Below, piece after piece: positions 6,224 through 24,599 of a stretch of 64,000 nucleotides of DNA (positions are counted from its first letter, which is position 1; every line of letters starts with the position of its first letter). The DNA lies in the NCBI GenBank assembly GCA_964489055.1, contig CAZAXF010000003.1, forward strand, positions 11,087 to 75,086. Direction: 5' to 3'. The DNA comes from an uncultured Rhodanobacter sp. GTDB lineage: Bacteria; Pseudomonadota; Gammaproteobacteria; Xanthomonadales; Rhodanobacteraceae. Below the pieces are notes generated by a model, which saw only the letters and a list, made by a program, of their open reading frames with translations, ran no database searches and was not told where the DNA came from. The translations under genes were made by a program, and so were the position numbers.

Positions 6224-7893
6224 TGCGTTGCAAGCCTGCGGGCGCGCACCCGTTCCCGGAAAGATGAATCATGCCGCGGTGGAGCGCTGCACCCAGAATC
6301 GCCCGACGCGTAGGGCGGACATTGTCCGCCGGCGTGTGCCGCGACGGGCAGTGCCCGTCCTACCCGTGCCGCGGCGGGCGGTGTCCGCCCTGACGGCTCC
6401 GCGGCGGCTTCCAGCCAGCCGCCGGTGAATCCGGCGCGTTCGAGGCCACGGCGGATATACGGGTTCTTCTTCATCACCTTCCACACGAAACCCGAGCGGT
6501 AGTTCTCGATCATCAGCAGGATCGGCCCCTGGTCGATGCCCAGGTATTCGTTGTCGAACCAGCCTTCACCGGGCACCACCCGGCCCGTACGCACCTTGGC
6601 GTTCTCGAGGCGGAAGGTGGGGTTGAATGCGTCCTTGAAGCCGTATTCCGAGTACAGCCATTTCCCGTAGCGCTGGTACATCACCTGGATCGTGGGCAGC
6701 ACCAGTTCCGGTGCGAACACGATCGATGCGATCGACGCGGTCGGCGCGATGGTGCCGTCGTCGACGATGTGCCCGACGTCGGCACCGCGCGCGAGGTATC
6801 CGTGGAACTTCACCTGCGTTCCGTCGCCGCGCGTGAACGTGAAGTTGCCAGGGCCGTTGCAGGCCGTGAGGCCCCAGATGTCCTTGCCGTAACCGGTGAA
6901 ACGCCCGCCGCCTGACACCGCGTAGGCGTGCTGGCCGACCACCGAGCGGCGGCTGTTCTCGAAGTAGTCGAGATCATGCGCGCGCATGAAGGCGTCCTGG
7001 ATGCCGCGGAAATCGATCCACGCCTCGCTGTACTGGTGTCCGAACAGCGGCGCGAAACCGATGTGCGGCAGCCCGCCCATGAAGCTGCCCCAGGTCAGGT
7101 GGTAGGTCGATGTCCACGCCTCCCACGCGTCGGGTTGCACCGGGTGGGTGGGCGAGCCGAGCGCGAGGATGTACAGGATCATCGCCTCGTCGTAGCCCTT
7201 CCAGTCGTGCGGGATGAACTTTCCGCCCGGCGTCCAGCCCATGCTGATCAATGGTGCGCGCACCTGGGCCCAGTTCCAGTCCACGTTGCGGTAGAGCTCG
7301 TCCGCAAGCCGGCGGATTTCGCGTTCTTCGGGATTGTCGCGATCGAAATAGGACTGGTCGAACAGCACGCCGGCCATCAGCAGCGTGGTGTCGATGGTCG
7401 AGACTTCGTCGCGGCGGCTCCAGCGCTTGCCGCTTTGCATGTCCAGGAAGTGGTAGAAGAATCCGTGGTAGCCGGCGTCGTCGTCCTCGTCGGTGCCCTG
7501 CGGCGCGTTGGCGAAAAAGCGCAGCGTGGTCAGCACGCGCTGGCGCGCCTGTTCGCGGGTGATCCAGCCGCGCTCGACGCCGATCGGGTAGGCCGTCAGC
7601 GCGAAGCCCACCGCCGCGATGCTGGAAAACGGCGTCTTGCCCATCGGCCAGTGGTCGGGCACCAGGCCGTTTTCCGGGTTGGCCGTCTGCCAGAAGAAAT
7701 TGAAGGTACGGTGTTCGAGCTGATCGAGCGACAGCGTCGCCGGCGCAACCTGCGTGGACAGCGCCGGCTGTGTGCGTTGCGCAGCGGCCTGCAGCGGGGA
7801 TGCCAGCACCAGCAGGCCCAGCAGGATCCCGGTGCCGGCCTTGCGCGCGAATCCAGCCAGGGTGCCTGAAAACTTTCCCGCCCATCCGCTCAT
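6220..7893 (-). CDS. GH144-like (DUF3131, 'glucoamylase family') protein, candidate endo-beta-1,2-glucanase
   Basis: 557 aa with a signal peptide (LLVLASPLQAAAQ). The body matches my memory of DUF3131/GH144 proteins (FNFFWQTANPENGLVPD, GFFYHFLD, STIDTTLLMAGV, GIDQGPILLMIENYRSG, AGFTGGWL). The last ~65 codons read through REP elements. Confidence 0.8.
   Translation of the reverse strand: MSGWAGKFSGTLAGFARKAGTGILLGLLVLASPLQAAAQRTQPALSTQVAPATLSLDQLEHRTFNFFWQTANPENGLVPDHWPMGKTPFSSIAAVGFALTAYPIGVERGWITREQARQRVLTTLRFFANAPQGTDEDDDAGYHGFFYHFLDMQSGKRWSRRDEVSTIDTTLLMAGVLFDQSYFDRDNPEEREIRRLADELYRNVDWNWAQVRAPLISMGWTPGGKFIPHDWKGYDEAMILYILALGSPTHPVQPDAWEAWTSTYHLTWGSFMGGLPHIGFAPLFGHQYSEAWIDFRGIQDAFMRAHDLDYFENSRRSVVGQHAYAVSGGGRFTGYGKDIWGLTACNGPGNFTFTRGDGTQVKFHGYLARGADVGHIVDDGTIAPTASIASIVFAPELVLPTIQVMYQRYGKWLYSEYGFKDAFNPTFRLENAKVRTGRVVPGEGWFDNEYLGIDQGPILLMIENYRSGFVWKVMKKNPYIRRGLERAGFTGGWLEAAAEPSGRTPPAAARVGRALPVAAHAGGQCPPYASGDSGCSAPPRHDSSFRERVRARRLATQ
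6310..6394. repeat. Three GTAG-headed REP (SMAG-like) palindromes in alternating orientation
   Basis: GTAGGGCGGACATTGTCCGCC (6310-6330). The reverse complement of 6341-6363 is GTAGGACGGGCACTGCCCGTCGC. 6373-6394 is a degenerate third copy. Confidence 0.8.
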
Positions 7894-8111
7894 GGCCGTT
7901 GCCCCGCGATTGGGTACTTGCCGGAGGTCCGTTGCCGGGTGCGTTCGTGGAAGGCCGTCGTGATTTGATCCGGTGTGGACACGCAGTATCCCTCGTGGTG
8001 GACGTTTTGCTGGACGAAATGGTTGTCTTGCCTGGTGGGTTGGTCGACGAGCACGTGGTCGATTGTGCCCGAAGTCGGCCGGTGCCCCGCCAAGGCGCGC
8101 GATTTCCGCAT
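7890..8111 (-). CDS. Possible 73-aa coupling ORF of unknown function (or decayed gene remnant)
   Basis: Its ATG overlaps the halogenase-remnant stop (TAATG at 8109-8113) and its stop overlaps the GH144 start (ATGA at 7890-7893). The peptide is MRKSRALAGHRPTSGTIDHVLVDQPTRQDNHF... with His/Gln/Thr-rich odd composition. Third-position GC is lower than in its neighbours. Confidence 0.25.
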   Translation of the reverse strand: MRKSRALAGHRPTSGTIDHVLVDQPTRQDNHFVQQNVHHEGYCVSTPDQITTAFHERTRQRTSGKYPIAGQRP

Positions 8112-8802
8112 TACGTCAGGGAGCCTTGGAGCGGAGCCGCGCGCGGAGCGTGCGGGCAGCCGTTGGACCGGCTCCGGTGCCACCCCGGAAACGAAGCCTG
8201 ACACGGGTCGTCCCACACCGCCGCGCAACTGCGCGCGATGGATTGTTCGTGGGTGGACATGGCATCCGCGCAGGCGGCGATCGCGCGCTGCACGTCGTCC
8301 ATCAGGTGTTTCAGTTCGGCATCGGAAAGCTGGTCCACCGCCGAGTGCCAGGCGCGCGGCAGGATGCGCTGGCCGATCATCACTTCCACCCAGCTCGTGA
8401 GCGCGAACAATTCCTCGGCATTGCGGTAGAAGCGCCCGCTGTCGCGGAACAGGCGGATGTTCTCGGCCAGCTCGTCGGGGATGTCCATCGTGCGGCAATG
8501 ATTCCAGAGCGGCGTGTCGTCGCGTTCGGTGGCGACATAGTGCAGGATGATGAAGTCGCGGATGCGCTCGATCTCGAACGCCGTCTGCGCGTTGTAGCGG
8601 TCGATCACCGCGGGGTTGAACTCGCGGTCGGGGAACAGGTTCACCAGCCGCGCGATGCCCGACTGGATCAGGTAGATGTTGGTCGATTTCAGCGGCTCCA
8701 GGAAGCCGGCCGCGAAGCCCGGCGCGACCACGTTGCGGTCCCGGATCTTCCGGCGCTGGACGGGCACGAAACGCAGCATGCGCGGTTCGCCGATCGCCGG
8801 TG
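8111..8802 (-). pseudogene. Tryptophan-halogenase-family gene, C-terminal ~40 percent only (5' end deleted)
   Basis: The ORF 8111..8779 reads ...RRKIRDRNVVAPGFAAGFLEPLKSTNIYLIQSGIARLVNLFPD...RIRDFIILHY.... The GFLEPL(E/K)ST motif sits about two-thirds into full-length (~500 aa) homologues. No N-terminal FAD-binding part is present upstream. Confidence 0.75.
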
Positions 8803-8945
8803 CGTCCAGGCACTCGAGCAGGCGCGCGGCGGCGCGCTCGATGCGCGCGCGAACCGGGGGTGACGCGGCTGCTGCCGTTCAGTGTGCGCGACACGATAGC
8901 CACTGAAACCCTTGCCTCCCGGGCGACGTCTTTGATCGTCACGAC
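8803..8945 (-). pseudogene. LacI-family regulator remnant (HTH region only, frameshifted), paralogous to 14234-15280
   Basis: VVTIKDVAREARVSVAIVSRTLNGSSRVTPGSRA matches VTIRDVAREARVSVATVSRALNNSPMVTPATRA at about 25/33 residues by hand. The match continues after a frameshift as RARIERAAARL versus RARVQQVAARL, then joins the halogenase remnant. Confidence 0.7.
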
Positions 8946-9011
8946 TGTGGGCGCTCCTTGCCGTTGTCCCCGACCGGGGCGCCCATCCCGGACGCGGTGG
9001 AGCAGGGCGAA

Positions 9012-9025
9012 TGTAAACGTTTTCA
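9012..9025. promoter_or_regulatory. LacI-family operator (relic copy)
   Basis: TGTAAACGTTTTCA fits TGnAAnCGnTTnCA. The extended match GAATGTAAACGTTTTCA is identical to 15349-15365. Confidence 0.55.
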
Positions 9026-9097
9026 TATCGGAATGCAAAACCGATGTTGTCTACGCCCGGTCGCCCCCGGGACTCACGACGGACACGGCTCGCCGGA

Positions 9098-10918
9098 TCA
9101 GCCGGCGAAGAAGGCCTCGAACTTCGCGATGGTGGTGAACGTCGCCGCGCCGCCGGGCTTGCCGACGATGCGTACCCCGTCGCCCCGCGTCGGCGCGAAG
9201 TCGAGCACGTAGCGCCGGTTGGGGCCGGCGCTGCGGTCACGGGGGTAGGGCGGGCTGACGTGCAGCCGTCGCACATCGAACCAGCGGCCATCGCGGCGGA
9301 CCTGGACCTTCAGGGTGTCGAACCAGCCGCCGTCCGCGAACGTTTCGCCGCTGGTGTAGACGACCCGGTCGAGGTGATACATGCACGTCCAGGTCACGCC
9401 CCAGAAGTCCGCGGGTTTGTCGGCCTCGCAGTCGAAGCTGCTCTCGACGGCGCCGGCGCGGCCGTAGCGAGCGCACTTCTCGATCGCGACCGCGCCTGTG
9501 CCGTGGGCCGCGAGGTCCAGGTCGGGGTCGGGCCTGTTGTGCGGCTCCGTGGGCGTGAACGGCTCGACCCGCAGCCGGCGCAGCCCGAAGTTGTAGTTCG
9601 GCTTGCCGCAGGCGAAGTTCCAGCGCTTCCAGGTGCTGGTCTGCACCCACATGCTGCGGCCGTCCGCACTGATGTATTTGGAAGGAATCGTGGTGGGATA
9701 ACCGCCGACGCGCAGGCCGGGGCAGTCGCAGGCGGGCTCGTCGCACGGCCCGTAGAACGGCGTCGCGCCGAAGTCCTTGTGCAGGAACAGCCGCCACGGG
9801 CCCCAAGGCGTGGGCGCCTCGTAGAACTCGAAGGTGTACCAGGTCCACGACGTGTAGAGGTAGCGTTTCAGCGGCGCGTTGTAGACCACGCCGCCCTGGG
9901 AGATCACCGACACGTTGCTGGCCTTCTGGTCGCCCGGCCGGCCGCCGCAGCGCAGTTTCGGATATACGGTGCGCGCATCGTGCAGCACCGGCCTGCGCGC
10001 GGCGATGTCAGGCGTCCAGCGCGGTACACCGTCCGCGTCCATGCCCGCGAAGAAGTGCCAGGCATCGCGCTGCTGGATGCGGTCCTTCGGCACCCGCGCG
10101 AGGTACAGGTCGGTGGTGGACGGCAACGCCGGGTCGGTCGGATCGCGCCAGTTGTAGTCGATGCCGTAGGCATACACGTAGCGCGAATCCTCGGGGCCCA
10201 GCACGCGGGCGTGTTCGCCGCTGCGGCCGAAATCGAGGAAGAACACCGTGGTGAAGACGTGGTCGGTGAACATCGGCGCGTCCGTCTCATGCCAGGTCCT
10301 GCCGTAGTCATCCGAGCGCACGATGGTGGCCGAGGGCGCGTCGTTGAAGCATTCGGGACAGGGCGCGGTGTGCAGCGCCTGGATGGCGAGATACAGCTCG
10401 TCGCGGCCGTCGCCATTGCCGTCGACGGCCAGCATCCCGGTGGGCTTGCGGTTGTAGTGTTTCGGGTCGGCCCAGATGCGGCCGAGCTTTTCGCCGGCGG
10501 CGACGCGCTCGCCGGTGATGCCGGTTTCCGGTGTCCCCGACAGGCGGCTGACGCAGATGTCGTGCGAGGGTGCGGGGCCGAAGCCGCGGCCGTCGCCATT
10601 GGCGGCGTAGACGTGGTCGTCGTCGGCCCAGCACGAGGGCCAGAGGTCGCCGTCACTGGCGGTGGTGACCGAATAGCAGTATTCGACCCATGCGGTGGCA
10701 AAGAAACGGCTGTCGGGATCGACCACGCCGGCGATGCCGGCGGCGCCGGCCCGCGTGTCCGCGCCCATTGCGACGGCCGCGGCGATGGCGTGCGCGAGCC
10801 GCTGCGGCAGGCCGGCGCCCACCACGGCCGCGGCCGCCAGGCCGGAGGCCCGAAGGAACGCGCGGCGGCCGGGGCTCCCCGGCACCGCGGCGGATGGATC
10901 GGTATTGTGTCGGGCCAT
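9098..10918 (-). CDS. Tat-exported hypothetical protein, candidate novel glycosidase (propeller-like body plus C-terminal galactose-binding-like domain)
   Basis: 606 aa with the twin-arginine signal SPGRRAFLRASGLAAAAVVGAG. The WADDDHVYAANGDGRGFG and SDDYGRTW motifs are reminiscent of DUF4185/sialidase-like folds (uncertain). The C-terminus GGWFDTLKVQVRRDGRWFDV...GVRIVGKPGG...FTTIAKFEAF resembles a binding-module beta-sandwich. Confidence 0.7.
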   Translation of the reverse strand: MARHNTDPSAAVPGSPGRRAFLRASGLAAAAVVGAGLPQRLAHAIAAAVAMGADTRAGAAGIAGVVDPDSRFFATAWVEYCYSVTTASDGDLWPSCWADDDHVYAANGDGRGFGPAPSHDICVSRLSGTPETGITGERVAAGEKLGRIWADPKHYNRKPTGMLAVDGNGDGRDELYLAIQALHTAPCPECFNDAPSATIVRSDDYGRTWHETDAPMFTDHVFTTVFFLDFGRSGEHARVLGPEDSRYVYAYGIDYNWRDPTDPALPSTTDLYLARVPKDRIQQRDAWHFFAGMDADGVPRWTPDIAARRPVLHDARTVYPKLRCGGRPGDQKASNVSVISQGGVVYNAPLKRYLYTSWTWYTFEFYEAPTPWGPWRLFLHKDFGATPFYGPCDEPACDCPGLRVGGYPTTIPSKYISADGRSMWVQTSTWKRWNFACGKPNYNFGLRRLRVEPFTPTEPHNRPDPDLDLAAHGTGAVAIEKCARYGRAGAVESSFDCEADKPADFWGVTWTCMYHLDRVVYTSGETFADGGWFDTLKVQVRRDGRWFDVRRLHVSPPYPRDRSAGPNRRYVLDFAPTRGDGVRIVGKPGGAATFTTIAKFEAFFAG

Positions 10919-10982
10919 GCGCGGTCTCCTGGCCGGATGCGAGCTGGCCGCGGGCGCCCGGCCGGTGAGGCCCGCGGTCCCA

Positions 10983-11140
10983 TCAGTTGCCGGTGCGCGT
11001 TTCCAGCATCGCTACCGCCGTCAAGGTTTTGCCTTCGACGGATGCCAGGAACGCGCCGCCGCCGGTCGAGACGAGGGGGGACCCGGTCGGCGACGCGGTA
11101 CTTGTCGAGCGCCGCGACGGTATCGCCGTCACCGGTGATC
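10983..11140 (-). pseudogene. pgk: Relic of a phosphoglycerate kinase 3' end (last ~52 codons, +1 frameshift)
   Basis: The reverse strand reads ITGDGDTVAALDKYRVADRV / (frameshift in the GGGGGG run at ~11075) / [28 protein letters not shown]. The intact Pgk C-terminus (23294-) reads [51 protein letters not shown]. Confidence 0.8.
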
Positions 11141-11151
11141 TAAGGTGCGAC

Positions 11152-14100
11152 TCAGAACCGCACGCCCATCTCGAATTTGAGTGTGCGGGGCACGTAGGTG
11201 ATGTTGCCGATCGTGTTGTAGGTTACGACGGTTGTGCCCGGCCCACCGGTGGTCACGACCCGGTAGCCGTTGAAGTTCCTGAAGTTGAACGCGTTCAAGA
11301 GGTCGAGGCGGGCGTACAGCGTGGTGCCGTGGCCCAGCTGGAAGTTCTTGGTGACCTGGAAGTCCACGTCCCGGTATCCCCAGATCTTGCCGCCGACTAT
11401 GAACCTGCCGCCGCTCGATGGGGTGATTCCCTCCGCCACGCAATGGCCGCCGTTGGCGAAGGTAACGGACTGGCCGCCACCCTGCCTTACGAAAGCCGAG
11501 TTCGGCCCGTAGCAGGAGATGCCGTTCCAGGGTGTCGGTGTGGCCAAGGTCAGCTTGGCGCCGAATACCAGCCCCCACGGCCCGGCCAGCGAACCCGTGG
11601 CCACGATGCGGTGCTTGGGCGCCGCGTTGGAGAGGATAAACGGGTAATCCTGGACGGTCGGATAGTCGAAGGAGTAGTGCTCGTTGATGTCGCGGTTCTG
11701 CTTGGCGTCGGTGAAGGTATAGGCGATGGTCGCGCCCCAGCCGGATTCCTTCGTGAACGGCTTGCTCGCCGAAAACAGGAACTCCGTGCTGCGGACCTCG
11801 ATGCCGTTGTTGCCGAGGATCAGGCCGCCGAAACCGGGAATGCTCTGGCCGAATTGATTGCCGTTCGGGCCAAAGAATGAACCGTCCGGATAGCGTCCGC
11901 CCAAGGTGAAGGCGAAGCCGCGGTGATAGAGCGTACGCACGACGGTGGCATCGGTCTGCCAGGCGCCGATGCGGTTGCGCATGCCGAGGCTGAACTTGTC
12001 GGTGTACGGCGGCTTGAGGTTGTTGTTGAGCATGTCGACCTCACCGCCATTCGTCGCCTGTACCAGCGCCTGCAGGTTCGCGAGCCCATTCAGGTAATCA
12101 GGATTCCACGCGAAACAGGGGGTCGAATCGTTGAAGCATTTGCCGGTCGCCGGATCCTGGAAATAGACCGTGAACTGCGGCAGCGCCGACTTGGTGGTCT
12201 CGAGCTGCATGTAGTTGTACAGGTTGCGGTCGTAGGCACGCCCCGCGCCGCCGTGGATTACATGTGCCTGGTCACCATCGATGTCGTAGGAGAAGCCGAG
12301 GCGTGGTTGCCATTCGCCCTTGTAGCCGTGGCGGTTGTGGCCGGTGCTGATGTAATCGTTGATGTTGATGCCGCCCATCGCCAATGCCTGGGCAAAGGTT
12401 TCGCCGGGTGCGGCGCTTGGCCGGTTGTACGGACTGTTGAGGGCGGCGATCACGTTCGCCGGCGTCACAAAATCGGTATACGAAGGGTCGTCCTCGTAAT
12501 CCCAGCGTACGCCCAGGTTCAGCAGCAATTTGTCGGTGACTTGCCAATCATCCTGGATATAGGCGCCGTACTGCTTGTCCTTGGTGACCACGGTCGGGGT
12601 GAGGCCGAGGCCGGCCACGGGTTTGGTGAAGAATGCCTTCCAGGGTGTGTCCTCGGCTCCCGACGCCGTAACGTTGTAGCTGAACTGCGGGTTCACGTCG
12701 GCTGCATCGGCCGCCGTGAGGGTCAGGTCACGGTAGTCGAAACCCACCTTGATGACGTGGTGGCCGTGCCAGTCGATGGTGTCGAACGTGAGGTCGTCCT
12801 TGAACGTCCAGCCTTCCTGCCCCTTGTTCTGAGCGGCCAATGGCGTGGCCGGCCCCGTGCGGATGATGACGGGTCGCCGCGGCCTGCCGCCCCACGTGTA
12901 GACCGAGCCATTGCCGAATGCCAGCGGCGTCGGATGGAAGAACGAGTACTGGTGCTCGATGTTCACCTCGTTGAACCAGCGATCGGCACTGTGATCCCAC
13001 GTGAGCTTGTAGCGCTTGTCGGTATTGTTGTTGTCGACGCCGGCAGAGGCCGCGGTGACGCCGCCCACGTCCTTGCGCGAATGCTCGTTGCGCACGCTCG
13101 CGGTCAGTATGAGCGTATCCCGGTCGGTCGGTTCCCAATCCAGTTTGCCGAAATACAGGTCCTCGTTGAACGGAAGATTCGCGGGACCCAGTTGCGCGGC
13201 GACGTCGGCCGGGAGGTATTGGGCACCATCGGCGGAATTGGAGTTGGGCGTGACGGTGATCGGCGTGTTGAACCGCTTGCCGGCATAGGTCACGAAGAAG
13301 TGCATCCGATTTTTGATGATCGGACCGCCCAGCGCGAAGCCGAACTCACGCTCATAAGAGGGGATTTTCTTGCCGGAATTGTTCTCCGCCGGCGTGCGTG
13401 CCCGGAATTTGCTGCTGGTATATCGGTCGAAAACCTCGCCATGGAATTCGTTGGTGCCGGACTTGGTGACGGCAGTGATCGCAGCGCTCCCGAGCTGCGA
13501 GTACTCGGCCTTGTAGCTGGCAGTGATCACGCGGTATTGGCCGATCGCCAGTTCCGGGAACGGGTTGCCCTGGCTGGCGTGCTGGCCGGCAATCGCGCCG
13601 CCCATCACGTAGCTCTTCCGACTGACGCCGTCGATGTAGACGTTGATCTGACTGTCGTTGAGGGCACCTGCGCGCAGTGAAGTAGTGCCGTTGGGCGCAA
13701 CGCTGAACTGCATACCGGGAACGATGTCCGCGAATTCCAGGAAGTTGCGCGAGACCTGCGGGATGGTCTGGATCTGGTGTTGCGAAACCGTCTGGCCGAC
13801 CTGCGAAGTATCCACGTGCAGCAGCGGCGTGGCCACCACGTGGATGGTCTGCAGCGTTTCCGGGGCCGCCGGGGCGGGCGCGGCGGCTTCCCTGGAAAGA
13901 TTCAGGGTCGAGGTCGAGGCCACCGACAAGGTCACCGTCTGGGCGGTGCCGGGGCCGGCGTCCACGCGATAAGTGCCGGGCGGCAGTCCCACCAGCACGT
14001 AGCTGCCCGCCGAGGACGCCTTGGTGACGCGCACCGCGCCGGTGGCGACGTTGCGTGCGGTCACGGTGGCGTTCGGAGGGGCCGTGCCGCGCAGGTTGGC

Positions 14101-14208
14101 GTTGGCCGACTGGGCGAAGGATACCGACGGTCCTCCCAGCGACGCGGCGATGCCGCTCGTGATCAGCGCTGCCAGCAGTTTTTTCCGCAACTTGATTGGG
14201 TGTTTCAT
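11152..14208 (-). CDS. TonB-dependent receptor, Oar-like (N-terminal carboxypeptidase-regulatory-like domain)
   Basis: Start at MKHPIKLRKKLLAAL (ATG 14208, AGGAGG upstream) with a signal peptide ending SFAQS. It has a CarboxypepD_reg-like segment (GSYVLVGLPPGTYRVDAG), a ~1000-aa barrel and a terminal aromatic residue (...KFEMGVRF). Confidence 0.93.
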   Translation of the reverse strand: MKHPIKLRKKLLAALITSGIAASLGGPSVSFAQSANANLRGTAPPNATVTARNVATGAVRVTKASSAGSYVLVGLPPGTYRVDAGPGTAQTVTLSVASTSTLNLSREAAAPAPAAPETLQTIHVVATPLLHVDTSQVGQTVSQHQIQTIPQVSRNFLEFADIVPGMQFSVAPNGTTSLRAGALNDSQINVYIDGVSRKSYVMGGAIAGQHASQGNPFPELAIGQYRVITASYKAEYSQLGSAAITAVTKSGTNEFHGEVFDRYTSSKFRARTPAENNSGKKIPSYEREFGFALGGPIIKNRMHFFVTYAGKRFNTPITVTPNSNSADGAQYLPADVAAQLGPANLPFNEDLYFGKLDWEPTDRDTLILTASVRNEHSRKDVGGVTAASAGVDNNNTDKRYKLTWDHSADRWFNEVNIEHQYSFFHPTPLAFGNGSVYTWGGRPRRPVIIRTGPATPLAAQNKGQEGWTFKDDLTFDTIDWHGHHVIKVGFDYRDLTLTAADAADVNPQFSYNVTASGAEDTPWKAFFTKPVAGLGLTPTVVTKDKQYGAYIQDDWQVTDKLLLNLGVRWDYEDDPSYTDFVTPANVIAALNSPYNRPSAAPGETFAQALAMGGININDYISTGHNRHGYKGEWQPRLGFSYDIDGDQAHVIHGGAGRAYDRNLYNYMQLETTKSALPQFTVYFQDPATGKCFNDSTPCFAWNPDYLNGLANLQALVQATNGGEVDMLNNNLKPPYTDKFSLGMRNRIGAWQTDATVVRTLYHRGFAFTLGGRYPDGSFFGPNGNQFGQSIPGFGGLILGNNGIEVRSTEFLFSASKPFTKESGWGATIAYTFTDAKQNRDINEHYSFDYPTVQDYPFILSNAAPKHRIVATGSLAGPWGLVFGAKLTLATPTPWNGISCYGPNSAFVRQGGGQSVTFANGGHCVAEGITPSSGGRFIVGGKIWGYRDVDFQVTKNFQLGHGTTLYARLDLLNAFNFRNFNGYRVVTTGGPGTTVVTYNTIGNITYVPRTLKFEMGVRF

Positions 14209-14233
14209 GTCCCCTCCTGCACACTTGGGGTTG

Positions 14234-15280
14234 TCAGGTTGGTGTCGTCGCGAGCCGTCCGTGCCGTTTCGTGCCGGTTGCGGGCCCACGCGCGCCGCAT
14301 GACGCGCGCACCACCACCTCGCACGGCATGGTCGTCACGTCCGCTTCCGGTGTTTCCGGGTTTTCCAGTTGCATGACCAGCCGCTCCAGGGCGGCGTGCC
14401 CGAGGTCCGCGATCGCCACCCGCACGGTGGTCAGGGGCGGGTGCGTGTAGCGGGCGATCGGGATGTCGTCGAAGCCGGCCAGCGCGATTTCGTCGGGCAC
14501 CGACACGCCGGCCTCGTTGAATGCCGACAGGCAGCCGATCGCCATCATGTCGTTGGCCGCGAACACGGCGTCCGGGCGTTTGCGCGCGGACAGCAGCGCG
14601 CGTCCGGCGCGGTGGCCGGATTCCTCGGTGTAGTCGCCCTGCAGGTAACGCGCGGTCACGCCGCGTTTCCCCGCGATGGTTTCCTGGAAGCCGCGGCGGC
14701 GCTCGCGCGCGTCGTGGTTGGCGCGGGGGCCGCCGATGAACGCCAGGCGGCGATGACCGCGCGCGAGCAGGTGCCGGGCCATGGCGCTGGCGCCGCCATG
14801 GTTGTCGATGTTGACGTGGGCGCGGTGCAGGCCGTGTGGCGCGGTGTCGACCAGGACCGCCGGCAGGGTCGTGGCGAGGTACCGGCGCAGGTCGCGGGAG
14901 TCGAGGTGCGGCGACATGATGATGATGCCGTCGACCCGACCCTGCATTGCGCGCAGGGCGTCCGCGGCTTCGTCGGCGCCGCCGTGCGAACTGGAAACCA
15001 GAAGGTGCAACCCGTGCGCGCGCGCGGCGAGGTCGATGCCCCGGATCAGCTCGGAAAAGAACTCACCGAACAGGTCGGGCAGCAGCGCGCCGACCGCCAT
15101 CGTGCGCCGGGTCACCAGGCTGCGCGCGGCGCCGGTGGGAACGTAGCGAAGGCGGGCCGCGACCTGCTGGACGCGCGCGCGCGTGGCCGGCGTCACCATC
15201 GGGCTGTTATTCAACGCACGTGACACGGTCGCCACAGACACCCTTGCCTCCCGGGCGACGTCCCTGATCGTCACCGCCAC
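14234..15280 (-). CDS. LacI-family transcriptional regulator
   Basis: GTG start at 15280 (or 15274). HTH VTIRDVAREARVSVATVSRALN and a periplasmic-binding-fold core. The ORF track extends to 15412 across its own operator. Confidence 0.9.
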   Translation of the reverse strand: MAVTIRDVAREARVSVATVSRALNNSPMVTPATRARVQQVAARLRYVPTGAARSLVTRRTMAVGALLPDLFGEFFSELIRGIDLAARAHGLHLLVSSSHGGADEAADALRAMQGRVDGIIIMSPHLDSRDLRRYLATTLPAVLVDTAPHGLHRAHVNIDNHGGASAMARHLLARGHRRLAFIGGPRANHDARERRRGFQETIAGKRGVTARYLQGDYTEESGHRAGRALLSARKRPDAVFAANDMMAIGCLSAFNEAGVSVPDEIALAGFDDIPIARYTHPPLTTVRVAIADLGHAALERLVMQLENPETPEADVTTMPCEVVVRASCGARGPATGTKRHGRLATTPT

Positions 15281-15351
15281 AGTCGTCCCCCCTCCGAGCC
15301 ATCGGTCATTCGGGGTCTCCAGGTCTCCCCGGCGCCCCGGTCGAGGTCGAA

Positions 15352-15365
15352 TGTAAACGTTTTCA
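15352..15365. promoter_or_regulatory. LacI-family operator upstream of the lacI-TBDR unit
   Basis: TGTAAACGTTTTCA lies ~70 nt upstream of the LacI start. Confidence 0.6.
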
Positions 15366-15408
15366 ATGACAATTGCAAAGGCCTCCCGGTTGGTGGCCGG
15401 CCACGGCG

Positions 15409-17697
15409 TCACCCGCGCCCGGCCCGGATCGCCGGTGCGTGGCGAGGAGCCTTCGGTGGTGCGGAAGCCTTGCCGGCCGGCGTGTTCCGGTCCGGCCCGG
15501 CGGCGGCGTCCGGAACCGGCGTCACGCGCAGTGCGCCGATGTGCGCCTTGTTCAGCGGTCCGCTGGCGCCGCCCTGGCCGGCCGTGTAATGGGAAAAATG
15601 CGCAAGGTCACTCATGTTGAAGCCCTGCTGCAGCGAGAACGTGCAACGGGCGTGGGCGGGTGCCGCAAGGGTGCCGGTGGTGGAAAGCTGCATGCCGCGG
15701 CTTTGCGGCATCACGATCGGGATCGTCTGCTGCGGAACGCTGCTGCAATCGACCACGAGCCGCTTCACGGCGGCCGTGATCCCGGTGTTGATGGGACCGT
15801 GGTCGTTGGCGTAGTCCAGCGCCACCCGGTAGCGGCCGCCGGCGGGCGCGGTCCAGCTTCGCGGCCACGGGCCGGTCACATCGAACGCGTCGCCAACGCA
15901 GGTTGCCGGGCTGGGCAGCGATTCGAGGCCGTGTTCGCCAAGGCGGGCCAGGCGAAGGCAATGGCGCGCCGGTGACGCCGGCAGCGTCCACGTCGCGCCG
16001 GGCGGGCCGTGACGGCGGCCGTCAACGTACAGCACGTTCCGGCCCCCAGCGGCGCGCACCCGCCACGTCTGGCCCTCGCGTGTCACCGTCGGCGCGGGCG
16101 GCGCTTCGGGTGCATACATCGGCGCGCCCGTGTGCAGCGGCAGCGCCGGAACGTGGACGGCTTTCAAGGCAACCGTGGTGTGCATGCCTTCCTGCGTGAC
16201 GGTGCCGGCGACCAGCAGGTTGCCGTCGAGGGATTGCGGGCGTCGCAAGGTGATGCGCCGGTGCGGCAGGTCCAGCGTGATGGTGTGGCGCTTGCCGAAC
16301 AGGGTCGGCACCAGCGACACCGGCAGCTTGGGCTCGACCTTGCCGCCGGAGGTGAGTCCGAACACGCCTTCGGTCACCATGTCCAGGTAGCCTGCGACCG
16401 ACCACAACTGGCGCGGCGAATTGACCACCGGGCCGCTCAGCCTGCCCTCGTCCACGTGCACGGCCTGGCTCAGCATGGCGTAGTTTTCCATGTTGGAACC
16501 GGCCAGCGCGGGGCCGCGCATCAGCGAGCGGACCTGGCGCGCGATCAGCGCCGGATCGTCCACCTTGCGTGCGGCGCGCAACGCGTAGGCGCTGACGAAC
16601 GGCCAGATCGCGCGGTTGTGGTAGATCGGCTGGTCGGCCCGCTCGGGCCAGATCACCGGGCTGCCGGCAGGCCACACGGGATAGTGCGCAAGCGATTGGC
16701 GCGCGCGTGCCCGATCGGCGACGCCGCTGGTGATCGCAAGCGAGATCCCCAGCAGGTCGTAGGTGTCGACCGGCAGGCCGTCGCCGCCGAGGTAGCTCAT
16801 GTACATGCCGCGATCGGCGCGCCAGAAATGCGCGTTGATGGCCTGCTTCAGTGCCGCTGCCTGCCGACGGTATCGCGCGGCGGACGAATCGTGGCGCGCG
16901 TCGGCCATCCGCGCGGCCAGGCGCAGCGCCTGGTAGTGCAGCACGTTGGTCGAGAGCGCGAAGGACTGCGCGATGAACACCACGTTGTCCTTCGTCCAGG
17001 CGGGATAGGTCTGCTCGCGCCAGTCCAGGAACGAGGTCTCGCCGCGGTACAGGCCGAGGTGCGCGTCGAAGGCGTATTCGCGATCCTGCGCGAGCGTGTC
17101 TTGCAACGCCCGCCACACCTTGCCGGCGAAGGCCTTGTCGCCGAGCAGGTGGCGCGCGCCCAGGAACCACGCGACGCGGTCGGTGCTGATGGGCCAGCTT
17201 CCGCCCGAGCCGGTGTCCTGCATGGGATAAAGCCGTCCTGAATCCGGGCCCTGCGGCACGTCTTTCGCGCGCACGCCGGAGAGCTTGAACAGCAGCGATG
17301 CGCGCGCCCGCGCCGGGTCGTAGCGCCAGATGCCGAGGTCGATCGAATACGAAGTGTCGCGCGTCCACACGTAGGGCCACTTCACGCCGGTGACGAAGCA
17401 GTGGCAGGGCATCGGCCGGCCGTGGTCGTAGGCGGGGTCGCGCACCGCCGCCACCGAATCCTCGTCCAGCTCCTGCCGCGCCATCGCGAACAGGCCGTCG
17501 AACAGCGGGCTCGCGGTGTGGGTGGCCGCGCGCGCGGGCGAAATGTCGCGCTCGCCGAACGGCCCCTTGAGCCGGTAGCCGCCGTTCGCGGTGCGCGACA
17601 TGGAAGCGGTCTGCCCGCGCCACTCGAGGCTCGCGTGCCATGCAGGCGGCGCCGGTGCGGCTGCCGTCGCCAGCGCCAGCAGGATGCCCGGGATCAT
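15409..17697 (-). CDS. Secreted (alpha/alpha)6-barrel glycoside-hydrolase-like protein with C-terminal CBM6/35-like domain; family not recognised
   Basis: 762 aa with a short N-terminal hydrophobic leader. WPYVWTRDTSYS, GETSFLDWREQTYP, IYHNRAIWPFVSAY and SPRQLWSVAGYL resemble the GH15/GH63/GDE_C six-hairpin clan. The C-terminus reads YRVALDYANDHGPINTGITAAVKRLVV. Confidence 0.75.
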   Translation of the reverse strand: MIPGILLALATAAAPAPPAWHASLEWRGQTASMSRTANGGYRLKGPFGERDISPARAATHTASPLFDGLFAMARQELDEDSVAAVRDPAYDHGRPMPCHCFVTGVKWPYVWTRDTSYSIDLGIWRYDPARARASLLFKLSGVRAKDVPQGPDSGRLYPMQDTGSGGSWPISTDRVAWFLGARHLLGDKAFAGKVWRALQDTLAQDREYAFDAHLGLYRGETSFLDWREQTYPAWTKDNVVFIAQSFALSTNVLHYQALRLAARMADARHDSSAARYRRQAAALKQAINAHFWRADRGMYMSYLGGDGLPVDTYDLLGISLAITSGVADRARARQSLAHYPVWPAGSPVIWPERADQPIYHNRAIWPFVSAYALRAARKVDDPALIARQVRSLMRGPALAGSNMENYAMLSQAVHVDEGRLSGPVVNSPRQLWSVAGYLDMVTEGVFGLTSGGKVEPKLPVSLVPTLFGKRHTITLDLPHRRITLRRPQSLDGNLLVAGTVTQEGMHTTVALKAVHVPALPLHTGAPMYAPEAPPAPTVTREGQTWRVRAAGGRNVLYVDGRRHGPPGATWTLPASPARHCLRLARLGEHGLESLPSPATCVGDAFDVTGPWPRSWTAPAGGRYRVALDYANDHGPINTGITAAVKRLVVDCSSVPQQTIPIVMPQSRGMQLSTTGTLAAPAHARCTFSLQQGFNMSDLAHFSHYTAGQGGASGPLNKAHIGALRVTPVPDAAAGPDRNTPAGKASAPPKAPRHAPAIRAGRG

Positions 17698-17710
17698 GCC
17701 GGCATACCGG

Positions 17711-19291
17711 TCATGGCGACTTCGCGTTGTCGCCGGGCGCGATCTTCACCACCACGAGGCCCTGCGGCGGCACGCTGAGCGCGAGTTTCCCGTCGTGCAC
17801 GGCGAACTGCTGCGTCGCCGCCGGCTGGCCGGCCGCGCGCAACTGCGCGATCTGGCTGCGGCTGGGGAAGGCCGGTCGACCCATCCTGTCGTAAAGGGCG
17901 ATCACGTTGCCGTGGGTTGCATCCAGTCGCCACACGGTGGCGGTGGCCGATCCGTCGAGGTGGGCGATTCTCACCTTGAAGTCCTTCGTCGCACCTTCGG
18001 GCGCGCCCGGGGTATAGGTCGACCCGTGGGCGACCGGCGGCGCGTAGTTCCACAGCGCCAGCACCAGCGCGCCATCGGTGTTGCGCGTGGCCAGCGCGCT
18101 GTCCGAATCCAGCGGCAGGCGGGTGTGCCCGAGCCGGTGCAGCATCGCGAAGGCATTGAAGGACGGTTTGGGGATGCGGTACTCGGCGATCAGGCCGAAT
18201 CCGCCGTAGAACGGGGTCCTGGGCACGCCCTGTTCCTCGAACACGTCCGAGAACGTCCAGTAGCTCATCATTGCCACCTTGCCCGCGCAGGCGCGGATGT
18301 TGTTGGCCATCCACGGCCCCATGAACACGGTGTCGGTGACGTTCGGCAGGTTTGCGTAGGACGCGTTGTACTCGCTGAAGACCAGCGGCAGCTTCGGGTA
18401 CGGCGAGGCGAGGATCTGCTTGTGGACCTTGTCGACGGCGCGGCAGACCATGTCCCTGCGCGAGATGTGTTCGTCGGTGTGGAACACGTTCTCGGCGGTG
18501 TCGTCGCCGTACACGTGGGTGCTGACGAAATCGACCGGCACGTGGTTCTCGTGCACGTGCGCGAGGAAGGCCGGAATCCATGCAGCCTGGGCCGTGGCCG
18601 GGCCGCCCACGCGGATGCGCGGGCTGACCGACTTCAGCGCGCGCACGGTGTGGTCGTACAGCTTGAAGTAGGTCGCCTGCGCGGGCTTGCCGCCCCAGAA
18701 GTCGATGTTGGGCTCGTTCCAGACCTCGAAGTACCAGCTCGCGACCTCGTCGATGCCGTAGCGATCGACCAGGTGCTTCGCGAAGGCGCGGATCATCGCG
18801 TCCCACTCGGCGTAGTCCTTCGGTGGCATCACGTTGGGGTGGTACCAGAAGCTGTGGTGCTGCGAGGGATCCGAACTCATCGCCAGCGGCATGAAGCTCA
18901 GCTCCACGAAGGGCTTCACGCCCGCGGCCAGCAGGCCGTCGTAGATCTGGTCCACGTAGGAAAAGTTGTAGTGGATCTTTCCGTCCTTGCCGCGCTCGGC
19001 CAGGCCCACGTCGCGGTCGAAGATGCCGTGGAAGCGCACGTATTTGAATCCCGTGGCCTGGTGCACGGTATCGAGATCCTTGCGGTAGTCGTCGCGCAGC
19101 GCCAGCACCGCGCGGCCCGAGCCGAACATCTGCTCCCAGAAGTGCGGGAACGGCGTGCCCCTGGCCCCGGCGTCCAGCGTGACGTGCACGGTCTGCGCGG
19201 GCGGCGCGGCCAGCGCGATGCCGCCGGTCGCCAGCAGCGCGAATGCCGCCAGGCCCAATGCAAGATGACGAATACCCTCAAGGCGTTTCAT
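17711..19291 (-). CDS. GH39-like glycosidase (beta-xylosidase family)
   Basis: Start at MKRLEGIRHLALGL (ATG 19291) with a signal peptide. FKYVRFHGIF and YFEVWNEPN (clan GH-A acid/base) are present. 526 aa. The ORF track extends to 19876. Confidence 0.88.
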   Translation of the reverse strand: MKRLEGIRHLALGLAAFALLATGGIALAAPPAQTVHVTLDAGARGTPFPHFWEQMFGSGRAVLALRDDYRKDLDTVHQATGFKYVRFHGIFDRDVGLAERGKDGKIHYNFSYVDQIYDGLLAAGVKPFVELSFMPLAMSSDPSQHHSFWYHPNVMPPKDYAEWDAMIRAFAKHLVDRYGIDEVASWYFEVWNEPNIDFWGGKPAQATYFKLYDHTVRALKSVSPRIRVGGPATAQAAWIPAFLAHVHENHVPVDFVSTHVYGDDTAENVFHTDEHISRRDMVCRAVDKVHKQILASPYPKLPLVFSEYNASYANLPNVTDTVFMGPWMANNIRACAGKVAMMSYWTFSDVFEEQGVPRTPFYGGFGLIAEYRIPKPSFNAFAMLHRLGHTRLPLDSDSALATRNTDGALVLALWNYAPPVAHGSTYTPGAPEGATKDFKVRIAHLDGSATATVWRLDATHGNVIALYDRMGRPAFPSRSQIAQLRAAGQPAATQQFAVHDGKLALSVPPQGLVVVKIAPGDNAKSP

Positions 19292-19391
19292 GGCAACTCC
19301 CCGCTCGCTGGGGCTTTCATCCGCGCCGCGACCGCAGGGCCGGAACCCGGTGACGGCAGGCGCCGGAGTGCGTGGGCTGGACACGGGCCGA

Positions 19392-19405
19392 TGAAAGCGT
19401 TTACA
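19392..19405. promoter_or_regulatory. LacI-family operator in the divergent GH39 / MFS promoter region
   Basis: TGAAAGCGTTTACA. Its reverse complement GAATGTAAACGCTTTCA differs by one base from the other two sites. Confidence 0.6.
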
Positions 19406-19502
19406 TTCGGCCCCGAGTCTCGCCGATTCGCGCCTGCACGTCCAGTGGGGTATCGAAGGAACGTGCAGGCGACCGGTTGCGGCGCCAGGATGCTGGGGAG
19501 TC

Positions 19503-20933
19503 TTGTTGGTGAAACCTGCCTCGAACATGCCCGACGACCGTTCCGGACGCGCCAGTCTGCGCGTGATCCTCATCGCCGCCGCCGCCGCGCTGGGCGGTTT
19601 CCTGTTCGGCTTCGACACCGCGGTCATCAACGGCGCGGTGGATGCGCTCGGGCAGGCGTTCGACCTGGGACCGGTGGTGAAGGGCTTCGCGGTGTCCCTG
19701 GCGCTGCTCGGCTCGGCGCTGGGTGCCTGGTATGCCGGCGCGCTGGCGGACCGTTTCGGCCGGGTGCGCACCATGCAGGTCGCGGCGGTGCTGCTGGCCG
19801 CCGGCGCGGTCGGCGCCGGGTTTGCCGGATCGGTGGAATGGCTGATCCTGTGGCGCATCGTGGCCGGCATCGGCATCGGCGTGGCCTCGGTGGTGGCGCC
19901 GGCCTACATCGCCGAGGTCTCGCCGGCCTGGATCCGCGGCCGGCTGGGTTCGATGCAACAGCTTGCGATCGTGCTCGGCATCTTCGCCGCGCTGCTGAGC
20001 GATGCCTGGTTGGCCCACGCCGCGGGCGGCGCCAGCCAGCCGCTGTGGCTGGGGGTGGCATCGTGGCGCTGGATGTTCGTGGTCGGGGTGATCCCGGCGG
20101 CGATCTACGGCGGCCTGGCGCTGACCGTGCCCGAATCGCCGCGCCACCTGGTGGCGCGCGGGCGAAGCGAGGAGGCCCTGGCCGTGCTGCGGCGGGTGCT
20201 GGACCTGGACTCCGAATCCGCCCTGCGCGGCAAGTTGGCCGACATCGAGGTCAGCCTCAAGCGCGAGCACAAGCCGCGCTGGGGCGATCTCGTCGGCGGC
20301 CGCGGCGGGCTGCTGCCGATCGTGTGGGTGGGCATCATCCTGTCGGTGTTCCAGCAGTTCGTCGGCATCAACGTGATCTTCTACTACTCCACGATGCTGT
20401 GGCACTCGGTGGGCTTCAGCGAGGCCGATTCGTTCACGCTCACGGTGATCACCTCGATCGTGAACGTGGTGGTGACACTGGTGGCGATCGCGCTGGTGGA
20501 CAAGGTCGGGCGCAAGCCATTGCTGTTGACCGGATCGGCCGGCATGGCGATCACCCTGGCGCTGATGGCGTGGTGTTTCTCGCAGGCCACCGGCAGCGGC
20601 GCCAACATCAGCCTGCCCGCACCATGGGGCGTCACCGCACTGGCTGCGGCCAATGCCTACGTGGTGTTCTTCGGCGTGAGCTGGGGGCCGGTTGTGTGGG
20701 TGCTGCTGGGCGAGATGTTTCCCAACCGCATCCGCGCGATGGCGCTGGCGGTGGCGGCCGCGGCGCAATGGCTGGCCAACTTCGCGATCACCAGCACCTT
20801 CCCGGTGATGGCGCAGTTCAGCCTGCCGTTCTCCTACGGCGTGTACGCGTTGTTCGCGACCCTGTCGCTGCTGTTCGTGTGGCGGTTCGTGCGCGAAACC
20901 CGCGGGGTGGAGCTGGAGGACATGCCCGGGTAG
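19503..20933 (+). CDS. MFS sugar porter (glucose/galactose/xylose-H+ symporter family)
   Basis: 476 aa with 12 TM segments and the motifs GFDTAVINGA, LADRFGRVRTM, PESPRHL and VRETRGVELE. Confidence 0.92.
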   Translation: MLVKPASNMPDDRSGRASLRVILIAAAAALGGFLFGFDTAVINGAVDALGQAFDLGPVVKGFAVSLALLGSALGAWYAGALADRFGRVRTMQVAAVLLAAGAVGAGFAGSVEWLILWRIVAGIGIGVASVVAPAYIAEVSPAWIRGRLGSMQQLAIVLGIFAALLSDAWLAHAAGGASQPLWLGVASWRWMFVVGVIPAAIYGGLALTVPESPRHLVARGRSEEALAVLRRVLDLDSESALRGKLADIEVSLKREHKPRWGDLVGGRGGLLPIVWVGIILSVFQQFVGINVIFYYSTMLWHSVGFSEADSFTLTVITSIVNVVVTLVAIALVDKVGRKPLLLTGSAGMAITLALMAWCFSQATGSGANISLPAPWGVTALAAANAYVVFFGVSWGPVVWVLLGEMFPNRIRAMALAVAAAAQWLANFAITSTFPVMAQFSLPFSYGVYALFATLSLLFVWRFVRETRGVELEDMPG

Positions 20934-20938
20934 GCGCC

Positions 20939-23293: not shown

Positions 23294-24472
23294 TCAGCGC
23301 CTCGCGCGCGCTTCCAGCATCGCCACGGCCGGCAGGGTCTTGCCTTCCAGGAATTCCAGGAATGCGCCGCCGCCGGTGGAGATGTAGGAAACCTCATCGG
23401 TGATGCCGTACTTGTCTATGGCGGCCAGGGTGTCGCCGCCGCCGGCGATCGAGAATGCACTTGCATCGGCAATCGCGCGCGCGAGGGTTTCGGTGCCCTT
23501 GCCGAAGGCGTCGAACTCGAACACGCCGACCGGACCGTTCCACACCACCGTGCCGGCCTTGCCGATCATCCCGGCGTAGTGCCTGGCGGTTTCCGGACCG
23601 ATGTCCAGGATCATCTCGTCGTCCTCGACCTGGTCCACCGCCTTGACGGTGGCCGGCGCATCGGCAGCGAACTTTGGCGCCACCACCACGTCGACGGGGA
23701 TGGGAACCTCGGCGCCGCGCGTGGAGGCGGCGCTGATGACGTTGCGTGCGGCGTCCAGCAGCTCGGCTTCGCACAACGACTTCCCGACCTTGTAGCCGGC
23801 CGCCGCGATGAAGGTGTTGGCGATGCCGCCGCCCACGATCAACTGGTCCACCCGTTGCACCAGGTGCTGCAGCAGTTCCAGCTTGGTCGAGACCTTGGAA
23901 CCAGCGACGATTGCCAGCAGCGGCCGCGCCGGAGCCTGCAGCGCCTTGCCGAGCGCATCGAGTTCGGCGGCCAGCAGCGGGCCGGCGCAGGCGGTTCCGG
24001 CGAATTTCGCCACGCCGTGGGTCGATGCCTGCGCGCGATGCGCGGTGCCGAAGGCGTCCATCACGAACACATCGGCCAGCGCGGCGTATTTTTTCGCGAG
24101 CGCCTCGTCGTTGGCCTTCTCGCCGACGTTCATGCGGCAGTTTTCCAGCAGCACCACCTCGCCGGATTCGACGGGGACGCCGTCGAGGTAATCGCGCTCC
24201 AGCCGCACCGTGGTGCCGAGCTGTTCGCCCAGCCAGCGCGCGACCGGCGCCAGGGACTGGGCTTCATCGAACACGCCTTCCTTCGGGCGTCCCAGGTGCG
24301 AGATCACGAGCACCGCCGCGCCGGCGTCGCGCGCGGCGCGGATCGTCGGCAGCGCGGCGTCGAGGCGGCGGGTCGAGGTGATGCGGCCGTCCTGGATGGG
24401 TACGTTGAGGTCCTCGCGGATCAACACCCGCTTGCCCGCGAGGTCGAGGTCGGTCATGCGCAGGAAATTCAT
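23294..24472 (-). CDS. pgk: Phosphoglycerate kinase
   Basis: Start at [25 protein letters not shown] (ATG 24472). HLGRPKEG and [14 protein letters not shown] are present. 392 aa. Confidence 0.97.
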
Positions 24473-24599
24473 GCTCGAGGCTCGCCGTGGAAAGCCGCCA
24501 TTCTCGCCGCCGCCGTGCGGGCGGGCAACGTGCGATTGTCGCGGCGTCGCGATATGGCGTAGCCTTGGCTTCCTGATTCGCGGCGAAGGGGGCATGGCC

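Follow-up and report, generated by a model that had tools for sequence, protein, structure and literature searches.

Genomic islands integrate at the 3′ ends of tRNA, tmRNA and protein-coding genes, and the att site is duplicated in the process. In the Xanthomonadales, CUT loci or PUL-like clusters are mosaic, TonB-dependent-receptor carbohydrate-utilisation loci. Homology-facilitated illegitimate recombination (HFIR) and the single-crossover integration of recircularised DNA have been documented in Acinetobacter, S. pneumoniae, P. stutzeri and E. coli; in the single-crossover variant the homologous segment is duplicated as direct repeats around the insert, and the experimental events of these two kinds have been very rare, with inserts of about 1-2 kb (PMC3240628). 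In T6SS effector, Rhs and CdiA loci, displaced 3′ ends and orphan immunity genes lie downstream, and T6SS/Rhs modules enter via the conserved 5′ part of a gene and shift the old 3′ end downstream in the same orientation (PMC5361080).

We analysed a 64,000-nucleotide stretch of DNA from an uncultured Rhodanobacter sp. (the window), in which the 233-nt spacer between a TBDR gene and a DUF4185-like gene holds a remnant of the 3′ end of pgk, the phosphoglycerate kinase gene. The remnant has the same orientation as the intact pgk and is separated from it by a 12-kb block of six genes. The block and its surroundings comprise the following features.

8216-8809, minus strand: the 3′ 40% of a Trp_halogenase-like gene, in frame (PF04820 positions 286-457 of 458, E=1e-56)
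8819-9060, minus strand: 5′ relic of a LacI_2 gene, LacI_2b, residues about 5-88 (tblastn against LacI_2; Pfam LacI E=2e-9)
9098-10918, minus strand: DUF4185-like gene, product with a twin-arginine signal (Pfam DUF4185 at 36.7 bits, short of the 39.5 cut-off)
10983-11148, minus strand: 3′ relic of pgk, Pgk codons 339-392 plus stop (tblastn, Pfam PGK, DNA identity)
11152-14208, minus strand: TBDR gene, the last gene of the block (Pfam)
14234-15280, minus strand: LacI_2a, an intact LacI-family regulator gene (Pfam)
15409-17697, minus strand: six-hairpin glycosidase-like gene (Pfam)
17711-19285, minus strand, start approximate: GH39 gene (Pfam E=1e-104)
19503-20933, plus strand: MFS sugar transporter gene (Pfam Sugar_tr)
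21134-23293, plus strand: GH3 gene, convergent with pgk (Pfam)
23294-24472, minus strand: intact pgk, 392 aa, whose tail (23294-23458) is repeated in the relic (Pfam PGK E=2e-141)

An earlier note, made from the letters of the sequence alone, had listed the block as TBDR, LacI, six-hairpin protein, GH39, MFS and GH3, which matches the Pfam assignments, and its claim that the spacer carries a C-terminal copy of Pgk on the minus strand was borne out by tblastn and Pfam alike. When the window was searched with its own Pgk, tblastn returned two colinear HSPs in the spacer (joint E=1.1e-9), both on the minus strand: residues 342-361 were matched at 11139-11080 with 60% identity and, after a change of frame, residues 364-389 at 11072-10995 with 77% identity. 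The relic peptide, translated after removal of one C from a C6 run, scored 32.5 bits (E=6e-8; cut-off 27) with PF00162 (PGK) and covered profile positions 343-379 of 379. At the DNA level the relic is 73.6% identical to the intact tail (23294-23458) over 163 nt, 33 of its 54 residues are identical to those of the intact Pgk tail, and its stop codon (10985-10983) occupies the same codon position as that of intact pgk. The homology is firm from 11143 and possibly begins at 11148, which leaves 4-9 nt between the start of the relic and the TBDR stop codon (11154-11152).

The relic carries several lesions. A frameshift suspected in a G run near 11075 proved to be one extra nucleotide in the G6 run at 11075-11080 (plus strand). 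An in-frame TAG at 11142-11140, in place of Ser341, was absent from the earlier note. Pgk codons 1-338 are gone through a 5′ truncation, and the catalytic-loop residues are altered from GGGD to GDGD. Given these lesions, the relic cannot encode a functional Pgk. Compared with the consensus of five intact tails it shows 40 differences, distributed 17, 9 and 14 over codon positions 1, 2 and 3, whereas intact pgk tails compared pairwise differ at about 5, 4 and 18 sites of these three classes; the relic also deviates at 19 of the 113 positions on which the intact tails all agree. On this evidence the relic, whose differences are spread evenly over codon positions, unlike those of the intact tails, is a true pseudogene fragment that has decayed neutrally under relaxed constraint, and not a chance match.

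To place the relic in an evolutionary context, species-representative genomes were scanned with the DUF4185-like protein, which yielded 63 loci, the closest of them in Rhodanobacteraceae MAGs; the nearest relatives of the window are 77-85% identical to it at the protein level. Two of these MAG loci, L001 (77%) and L007 (73%), share the backbone of the window (ACDH, alpha/beta hydrolase, PEPCK, GST and pgk) and lack the block. In both, a full-length pgk stands immediately upstream of the DUF4185 orthologue, which is the adjacency that the earlier note had proposed to look for in block-free relatives of the 9098-10918 gene. The order in the two loci is pgk, DUF4185, (GH3′), LacI_2, TBDR, Trp-halogenase, glucoamylase and SBP, and the stretch from DUF4185 to glucoamylase, whole or partial, also occurs in L002, L003, L064 and L065. 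Because pgk directly precedes DUF4185 in L001 and L007, the relic occupies precisely the place of the pgk tail in these relatives and marks the ancestral pgk-DUF4185 junction, and 11152-23293 is an insertion relative to that order. To this extent the insertion proposed in the earlier note stood.

A second arrangement was found by a metagenome scan with Pgk and by look-ups of GH3 homologues. In L149, L154 and L155, pgk is followed on the same backbone by a convergent GH3 gene (80%) and by GH39 (77%); LacI_2 (78%) comes next in L149 and L154, the contigs of which end inside that gene, and the L155 contig ends inside GH39, with nothing visible beyond these points. In L066 and L086, GH39 follows pgk directly. 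LacI_2 and TBDR thus lie inside the block in the window and downstream of DUF4185 in the relatives, and in none of the relatives examined does a TBDR gene adjoin pgk sequence. On this comparison, the block is an alternative version of the same locus rather than foreign cargo, and in that respect the earlier proposal did not hold. At least three gene sets, namely DUF4185 onward, GH39 onward, and convergent GH3 plus GH39 onward, occur right after the pgk stop in six lineages sharing the ACDH-PEPCK-GST-pgk backbone. It is possible, though we put this forward only tentatively, that the pgk 3′ end is a recurrent, integrase-independent landing pad for carbohydrate-utilisation cassettes in the Rhodanobacteraceae.

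The individual genes of the block have different affinities. The intact pgk ends right at the GH3 stop, as had been noted earlier: there is no spacer, and the two stop codons abut (TGATCA) inside the palindrome GCGCTGATCAGCGC at 23287-23300. The GH3 gene groups with that of L149 (80%, 292/300 bootstraps), apart from the DUF4185-linked paralogue GH3′. By contrast with this L149 affinity of GH3, GH39 groups with L146/L148 (82%) and not with the pgk-adjacent GH39 genes of L066, L086 and L149 (77-78%). Neither the six-hairpin gene nor the MFS gene has a counterpart in L001, L007 or L149; the best homologues of the former, 76% identical, lie in GH31-GH39-six-hairpin-MFS loci. Both GH39 and the six-hairpin gene are similar to a GH31-GH39-six-hairpin module that occurs elsewhere in the family. 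A motif search placed an operator-like site at 19392-19405, in the divergent GH39/MFS spacer, and an operator search placed the LacI_2a operator, TGAAAACGTTTACA, at 15352-15365. LacI_2a itself is 76-79% identical at the amino acid level to LacI_2 of L001, L007 and L149. For TBDR, the closest homologues of which are P0002 (83%) and P0003 (71%), sliding-window identity showed that residues 1 to ~140 are like L001/L007 (75-88% in the best windows) and that the protein from residue ~150 to the C terminus is like L064 (80-97%); the blastn match to L064 stops exactly at 11152. The TBDR protein is therefore chimeric. With GH39 and the six-hairpin gene L146/L148-like, an MFS gene not found in L149 and such a TBDR, the block itself is a mosaic, so that more than one event is needed to explain it.

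Gene content and composition bear on the possibility of site-specific integration, in which an att site in the pgk 3′ end would have been used, a replacement tail brought in and the integrase later lost. Such a course would yield direct repeats of a gene 3′ end around a 12-kb insert with the gene left intact, and the gene sets found after pgk in six lineages would be in keeping with it, but we consider it highly improbable. The six tightly packed genes of the block encode glycan enzymes, transporters and a regulator. No recombinase gene was found by Pfam in these genes or in either flank, in agreement with the earlier remark that no integrase is left, and the gaps are too small for another gene. 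The Pfam domains of block and flanks are glycan-related, transport, regulator and housekeeping only; the insert holds homologues of the locus's own genes and no mobility functions. GC3 ranges from 0.83 to 0.92 in the block and from 0.84 to 0.91 in the flanks, codon-usage divergence is similar, and the low GC of the TBDR gene is confined to codon positions 1 and 2; the comparison of composition and codon usage between block and flanks that the earlier note had suggested thus revealed no anomaly. The repeats are 74% identical and contain no att-like exact core beyond conserved codons, their longest exact runs being universally conserved codons such as STGGGA, but decay could have erased a core. 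Finally, no further pgk-tail relic was present among the 153 other fetched loci (2.1 Mb).

That the insert brought a new pgk 3′ end could not be demonstrated, the intact tail resembling the relatives to the same degree as does the rest of pgk. Window Pgk is 82-85% identical to Pgk of L001, L007, L066 and L149, and sliding identity revealed no crossover inside pgk, with flat profiles and an intact tail no different from the remainder; informative sites were split 38 to 38 between L007 and L149/L066 and showed no spatial trend, in a test of low power because all of the lineages are about equally diverged. The geometry and the insertion idea of the earlier note are essentially right, and the detail of a foreign island with a replacement end is unproven.

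Downstream of DUF4185, two further scars were found. The LacI_2b relic has suffered a 2-nt deletion, and its operator TGAAAACGTTTACA is still intact at 9012-9025. It is followed by the halogenase fragment, which is 83% identical to the L001 protein at the amino acid level, with a dN/dS of 0.15. In L007 and L151, a full-length Trp-halogenase gene separates TBDR from the glucoamylase gene, and the L001 contig ends inside the halogenase gene. Together, the two remnants downstream of DUF4185 point to a second, native LacI_2-TBDR copy: the remains show that such a pair formerly followed DUF4185 and that a deletion removed TBDRb together with the adjoining 3′ part of LacI_2b and 5′ part of the halogenase gene. 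Since the halogenase fragment is in frame with a dN/dS of 0.15 and the divergence of the LacI relic from L001 is only 14%, the deletion appears to be much younger than the pgk relic. A 382-aa ORF at 7890-9038 was at one point taken for a LacI gene, 'LacI_1', and was rejected, the matches in relatives being the halogenase gene read out of frame. The ORF is an artefact, a remnant of LacI_2 fused to a remnant of the halogenase gene, and as such pseudogene debris.

The relic, the pgk-DUF4185 adjacency, the occurrence of either arrangement in relatives, the LacI_2b and halogenase scars and the mixed affinities of the block are observed; from them we infer in what order the events took place, in which direction DNA was transferred and by what molecular mechanism. 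We hold, with moderate confidence, that the block was inserted at pgk, anchored by homology on one side and joined illegitimately on the other, and that redundant native genes were lost afterwards. The ancestor would have had the order of L001/L007, that is, pgk, DUF4185, (GH3′), LacI_2, TBDR, Trp-halogenase, glucoamylase and ABC transporter, and the donor would have been a related Rhodanobacteraceae lineage with the L149 arrangement of pgk, convergent GH3, GH39, LacI_2 and TBDR. In the incoming DNA, pgk would have served as the homologous anchor, and the far end, just beyond the TBDR stop, would have been joined illegitimately to resident pgk codon ~339. An illegitimate joint is indicated because the TBDR stop lies within 4-9 nt of pgk codon ~339-341 and the homology to L064 ends at 11152. 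The event may have been an HFIR or, alternatively, a single crossover of a recircularised fragment carrying the pgk tail only. It would have left a complete pgk followed by the 12-kb block and, still joined to DUF4185, the final 54 codons of the resident pgk.

The intermediate genome would accordingly have read pgk, [GH3, (MFS), GH39, (six-hairpin), LacI_2a, TBDRa], pgk tail, DUF4185, LacI_2b, TBDRb, halogenase, glucoamylase. In it, the two LacI_2-TBDR pairs may have been co-resident for a long period, and the functionless orphan tail would have decayed by ~0.17-0.19 substitutions per site and acquired its frameshift and stop codon. A later deletion of 4-5 kb, with end points at LacI_2b codon ~88 and halogenase codon ~300, would then have removed the native pair.

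The doubling of LacI_2-TBDR, together with the joining of the TBDR end to the interior of pgk, would also follow naturally from an internal rearrangement, namely a tandem duplication of the segment bounded by pgk codon ~339 and the TBDR stop, after which the first copy lost or replaced DUF4185 and the second lost its LacI_2-TBDR pair. This reading covers the partly deleted second pgk copy that the earlier note had mentioned as another possible source of the pattern, it predicts the deletion scar at 9060-8216 as the loss in the second copy, and codon usage is uniform across the region. However, neither LacI_2 copy has the other as its closest relative. At the DNA level, the LacI_2b relic is 85.8% identical to LacI_2 of L001, 81% to that of L149 and 71.7% to LacI_2a, and in a four-point comparison it paired with L001, and LacI_2a with L149. 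Being so much closer to L001 than to LacI_2a, the relic comes from a lineage other than that of LacI_2a, which argues against a recent internal duplication. Nor is the pgk relic any closer to the window tail (73.6%) than to that of L007 (75.6%). In addition, four genes not present in L001/L007 (GH3, GH39, MFS and the six-hairpin gene) would need separate import, which brings the total to at least three events, against two for the homology-anchored insertion. We therefore regard an internal rearrangement as quite improbable.

The tail comparison is otherwise uninformative about ancestry. The relic is 73-76% identical to the tails of the window, L001 and L007, and 70-74% identical to dozens of the 83 pgk tails collected from relatives and metagenomes. 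Unique states common to the relic and a single tail number two for L001, one for L007 and one for the window. Lying about equally far (70-76%) from all tails, the relic is not assignable to a lineage in this way, the tail being too short for the purpose and its sequence too conserved.

Which side was incoming is a separate matter, on which the backbone is informative. In a tree of six linked backbone genes with short internal branches, the window joined L007, ((window,L007) 89%, L001, (L066,L149) 79%), and since L007 is a block-free genome, a resident of the L001/L007 type is favoured. The direction of transfer is favoured but not proven, because exactly the same final structure is predicted by the mirror image, in which the block was resident and an L001-like fragment (pgk tail, DUF4185, LacI_2b, TBDRb and halogenase) was imported after TBDRa. 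The resident order would have been pgk, GH3, GH39, LacI_2a, TBDRa, halogenase and glucoamylase. The homology anchor would then lie on the halogenase/glucoamylase side and the illegitimate joint right behind the TBDRa stop, and the relic would be a hitch-hiking piece of donor pgk that had never been part of the resident gene. We think this unlikely, although the relic side is indeed L001-like (DUF4185 82%, LacI relic 85.8% at the DNA level, halogenase 83%), the window PEPCK, GST and pgk are slightly closer to L007, and the lack of a crossover in pgk is as expected if pgk was not involved. With the backbone tree joining the window to L007 and not to L066/L149, a resident block would need an extra change.

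The synonymous divergence of the relic side also speaks against its import. The dS between window and L001 is 0.66 for DUF4185 and 0.62 for the halogenase fragment, compared with 0.64 for pgk and 0.63 for PEPCK, values that lie near a plateau of 0.55-0.9 and discriminate poorly (LacI_2a was left out of this comparison). Because its dS to L001 is the same as that of the backbone genes, the relic side fits vertical descent, and there is no sign of a more recent common ancestry with L001. The use of dS as a clock for the foreign side was dropped, all comparisons falling between 0.55 and 0.9. Although the window DUF4185 groups with L001 (82%, 299/300 bootstraps), the DUF4185-GH3′ segment of L007 looks L002/L003-like, which could by itself explain why the window resembles L001 rather than L007 there.

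We also examined what the TBDR-DUF4185 spacer does at present. There was no indication of a structured RNA in the spacer (folding z-score -0.69), no Rfam match in 8000-25000 and no promoter-like site in 8700-11400. The spacer contained no terminator-like site, the single match, at 8912-8926, lying outside it, and the operator search found no LacI operator in it. In L001 and L007, an operator is present between pgk and DUF4185. Since the spacer has no promoter, terminator or operator, and an operator is present at this position in L001 and L007, DUF4185 is now probably transcribed by read-through from the TBDR operon. We had also considered that the 65 nt between the relic and DUF4185 were homologous to the corresponding spacers of L001/L007, with a precise deletion of the operator; this was dropped, because the alignment score of 22 was within the range of shuffled sequences (mean 19.4, sd 3.5). 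Today, the relic is mere spacer.

Under the homology-anchored insertion, the relic is a record, dated and resolved to the base, of the rebuilding of a polysaccharide-utilisation locus in a soil gammaproteobacterium, and three scars (the pgk tail, the 5′ end of LacI_2b and the truncated halogenase gene) permit the intermediate state of the genome to be reconstructed. Such loci would be exchangeable between related lineages by recombination in flanking housekeeping genes, without mobile-element machinery. If the landing pad were general, the tails of housekeeping genes would serve metabolic cassettes as tRNA genes serve integrase-borne islands. For annotation, the 233-nt spacer and the ORF at 7890-9038 are best treated as pseudogene debris containing no genes. 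The event is of a known kind, a clear and ordinary scar of locus reshuffling, and leaves the current understanding of recombination unchanged.

Among known systems, genomic islands share with the window the direct repetition of a gene 3′ end around an insert and the intactness of the target gene. In the window, by contrast, neither an integrase nor other mobility genes accompany the insert, no short exact att core is seen at present, composition gives no signature, and the insert is a variant of the neighbouring locus. As in CUT loci, genes for a TBDR and a LacI-family regulator cluster with those for glycoside hydrolases and inner-membrane transporters, with a shared operator and variable content; whereas CUT loci have been described by gene content, the window shows the physical scars of one reshuffling, in the pgk tail, the LacI 5′ end and the halogenase 3′ end. 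The T6SS/Rhs orphans resemble the relic in that an old 3′ end is kept downstream in the same orientation. However, T6SS, Rhs and CdiA loci consist of polymorphic toxin/immunity genes under diversifying selection, often with arrays of several orphans, whereas in the window the tail of a housekeeping gene was displaced once, the cargo serves carbohydrate utilisation and the orphan is functionless. As in HFIR, one end would have been anchored in a conserved gene, here pgk, and the other joined without homology, and the repeat geometry around the insert is exactly that of single-crossover integration. By contrast with the experimental HFIR events, the insert in the window is 12 kb long, and the event is ancient and deduced from comparative data alone.

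A remnant of a second copy of the gene for the LacI-family regulator LacI_2 was found in the window next to the DUF4185-like gene, where it is fused to a fragment of another gene:

8819-9060, minus strand: decayed 5′ relic of the second LacI_2 copy (residues ~5-88, with a 2-nt deletion)
8216-8809 (ORF to 8111), minus strand: 3′ 40% of a Trp_halogenase-like gene, in frame (PF04820 positions 286-457/458)

At the DNA level, the relic was 85.8% identical to LacI_2 of L001, versus 71.7% to the window's own LacI_2; L001 and L007 are Rhodanobacteraceae MAG loci in which pgk is followed directly by the DUF4185 orthologue. A 382-aa “LacI” ORF at 7890-9038 was rejected as a gene, being an out-of-frame artefact of the high-GC halogenase-fragment DNA.

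The relic still contains an intact copy (9012-9025) of the palindromic LacI-type operator TGAAAACGTTTACA, which gave six matches over both strands, corresponding to four distinct sites (chance expectation, 0.06):

9012-9025, 15352-15365, 19392-19405 and 1510-1523: LacI-type operator sites

These sites lie at the promoters of LacI_2 and the LacI relic, in the GH39/MFS divergent region and, weakly, at GH1. In both L001 and L007, the operator is present in the pgk-DUF4185 spacer, upstream of DUF4185, whereas it is missing upstream of the window DUF4185.

Sequence comparison indicated that the TBDR gene (11152-14208, minus strand) is a recombinant, its similarity changing partner near 13760-13790. 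The N-terminal ~140 residues are L001/L007-like, and over the rest the protein shares 80-97% identity with the TBDR encoded by L064, a different MAG whose adjoining genes show just 52-63% identity to those of the window.

L001 retains, at ~11720-11917 between DUF4185 and LacI_2, a 5′ remnant (residues 1-67, E=6e-10) of GH3′, the DUF4185-linked GH3 paralogue, and deletion scars therefore occur at this locus in relatives too. L149 and L154, independent assemblies of an L149-type lineage with an alternative arrangement downstream of pgk, break inside LacI_2 (1-767 and 1-739, respectively) at points no more than ~27 nt apart; these near-coincident breaks may reflect a repeat in that lineage, such as a second LacI_2 copy. 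At the convergent pgk/GH3 junction, a perfect 14-nt palindrome, GCGCTGATCAGCGC (23287-23300), holds the abutting stop codons with zero spacer, compared to 235 nt in L149, and neither gene is followed by a terminator.

The backbone varies at a second place, the PEPCK-GST interval:

25418-26848, minus strand: MFS transporter gene within this interval

This gene is absent from L001, L007, L149 and L066 (pgk followed by GH39), and in its place L149 carries SnoaL-like and antitoxin genes. The DUF4185-like, Tat-signal protein is itself patchily distributed across phyla (36-65% identity; loci L005-L063), occurring in Rhodanobacteraceae, Acidobacteriota, Actinomycetota, Planctomycetota and a few Bacillaceae, which suggests frequent horizontal transfer of its gene.
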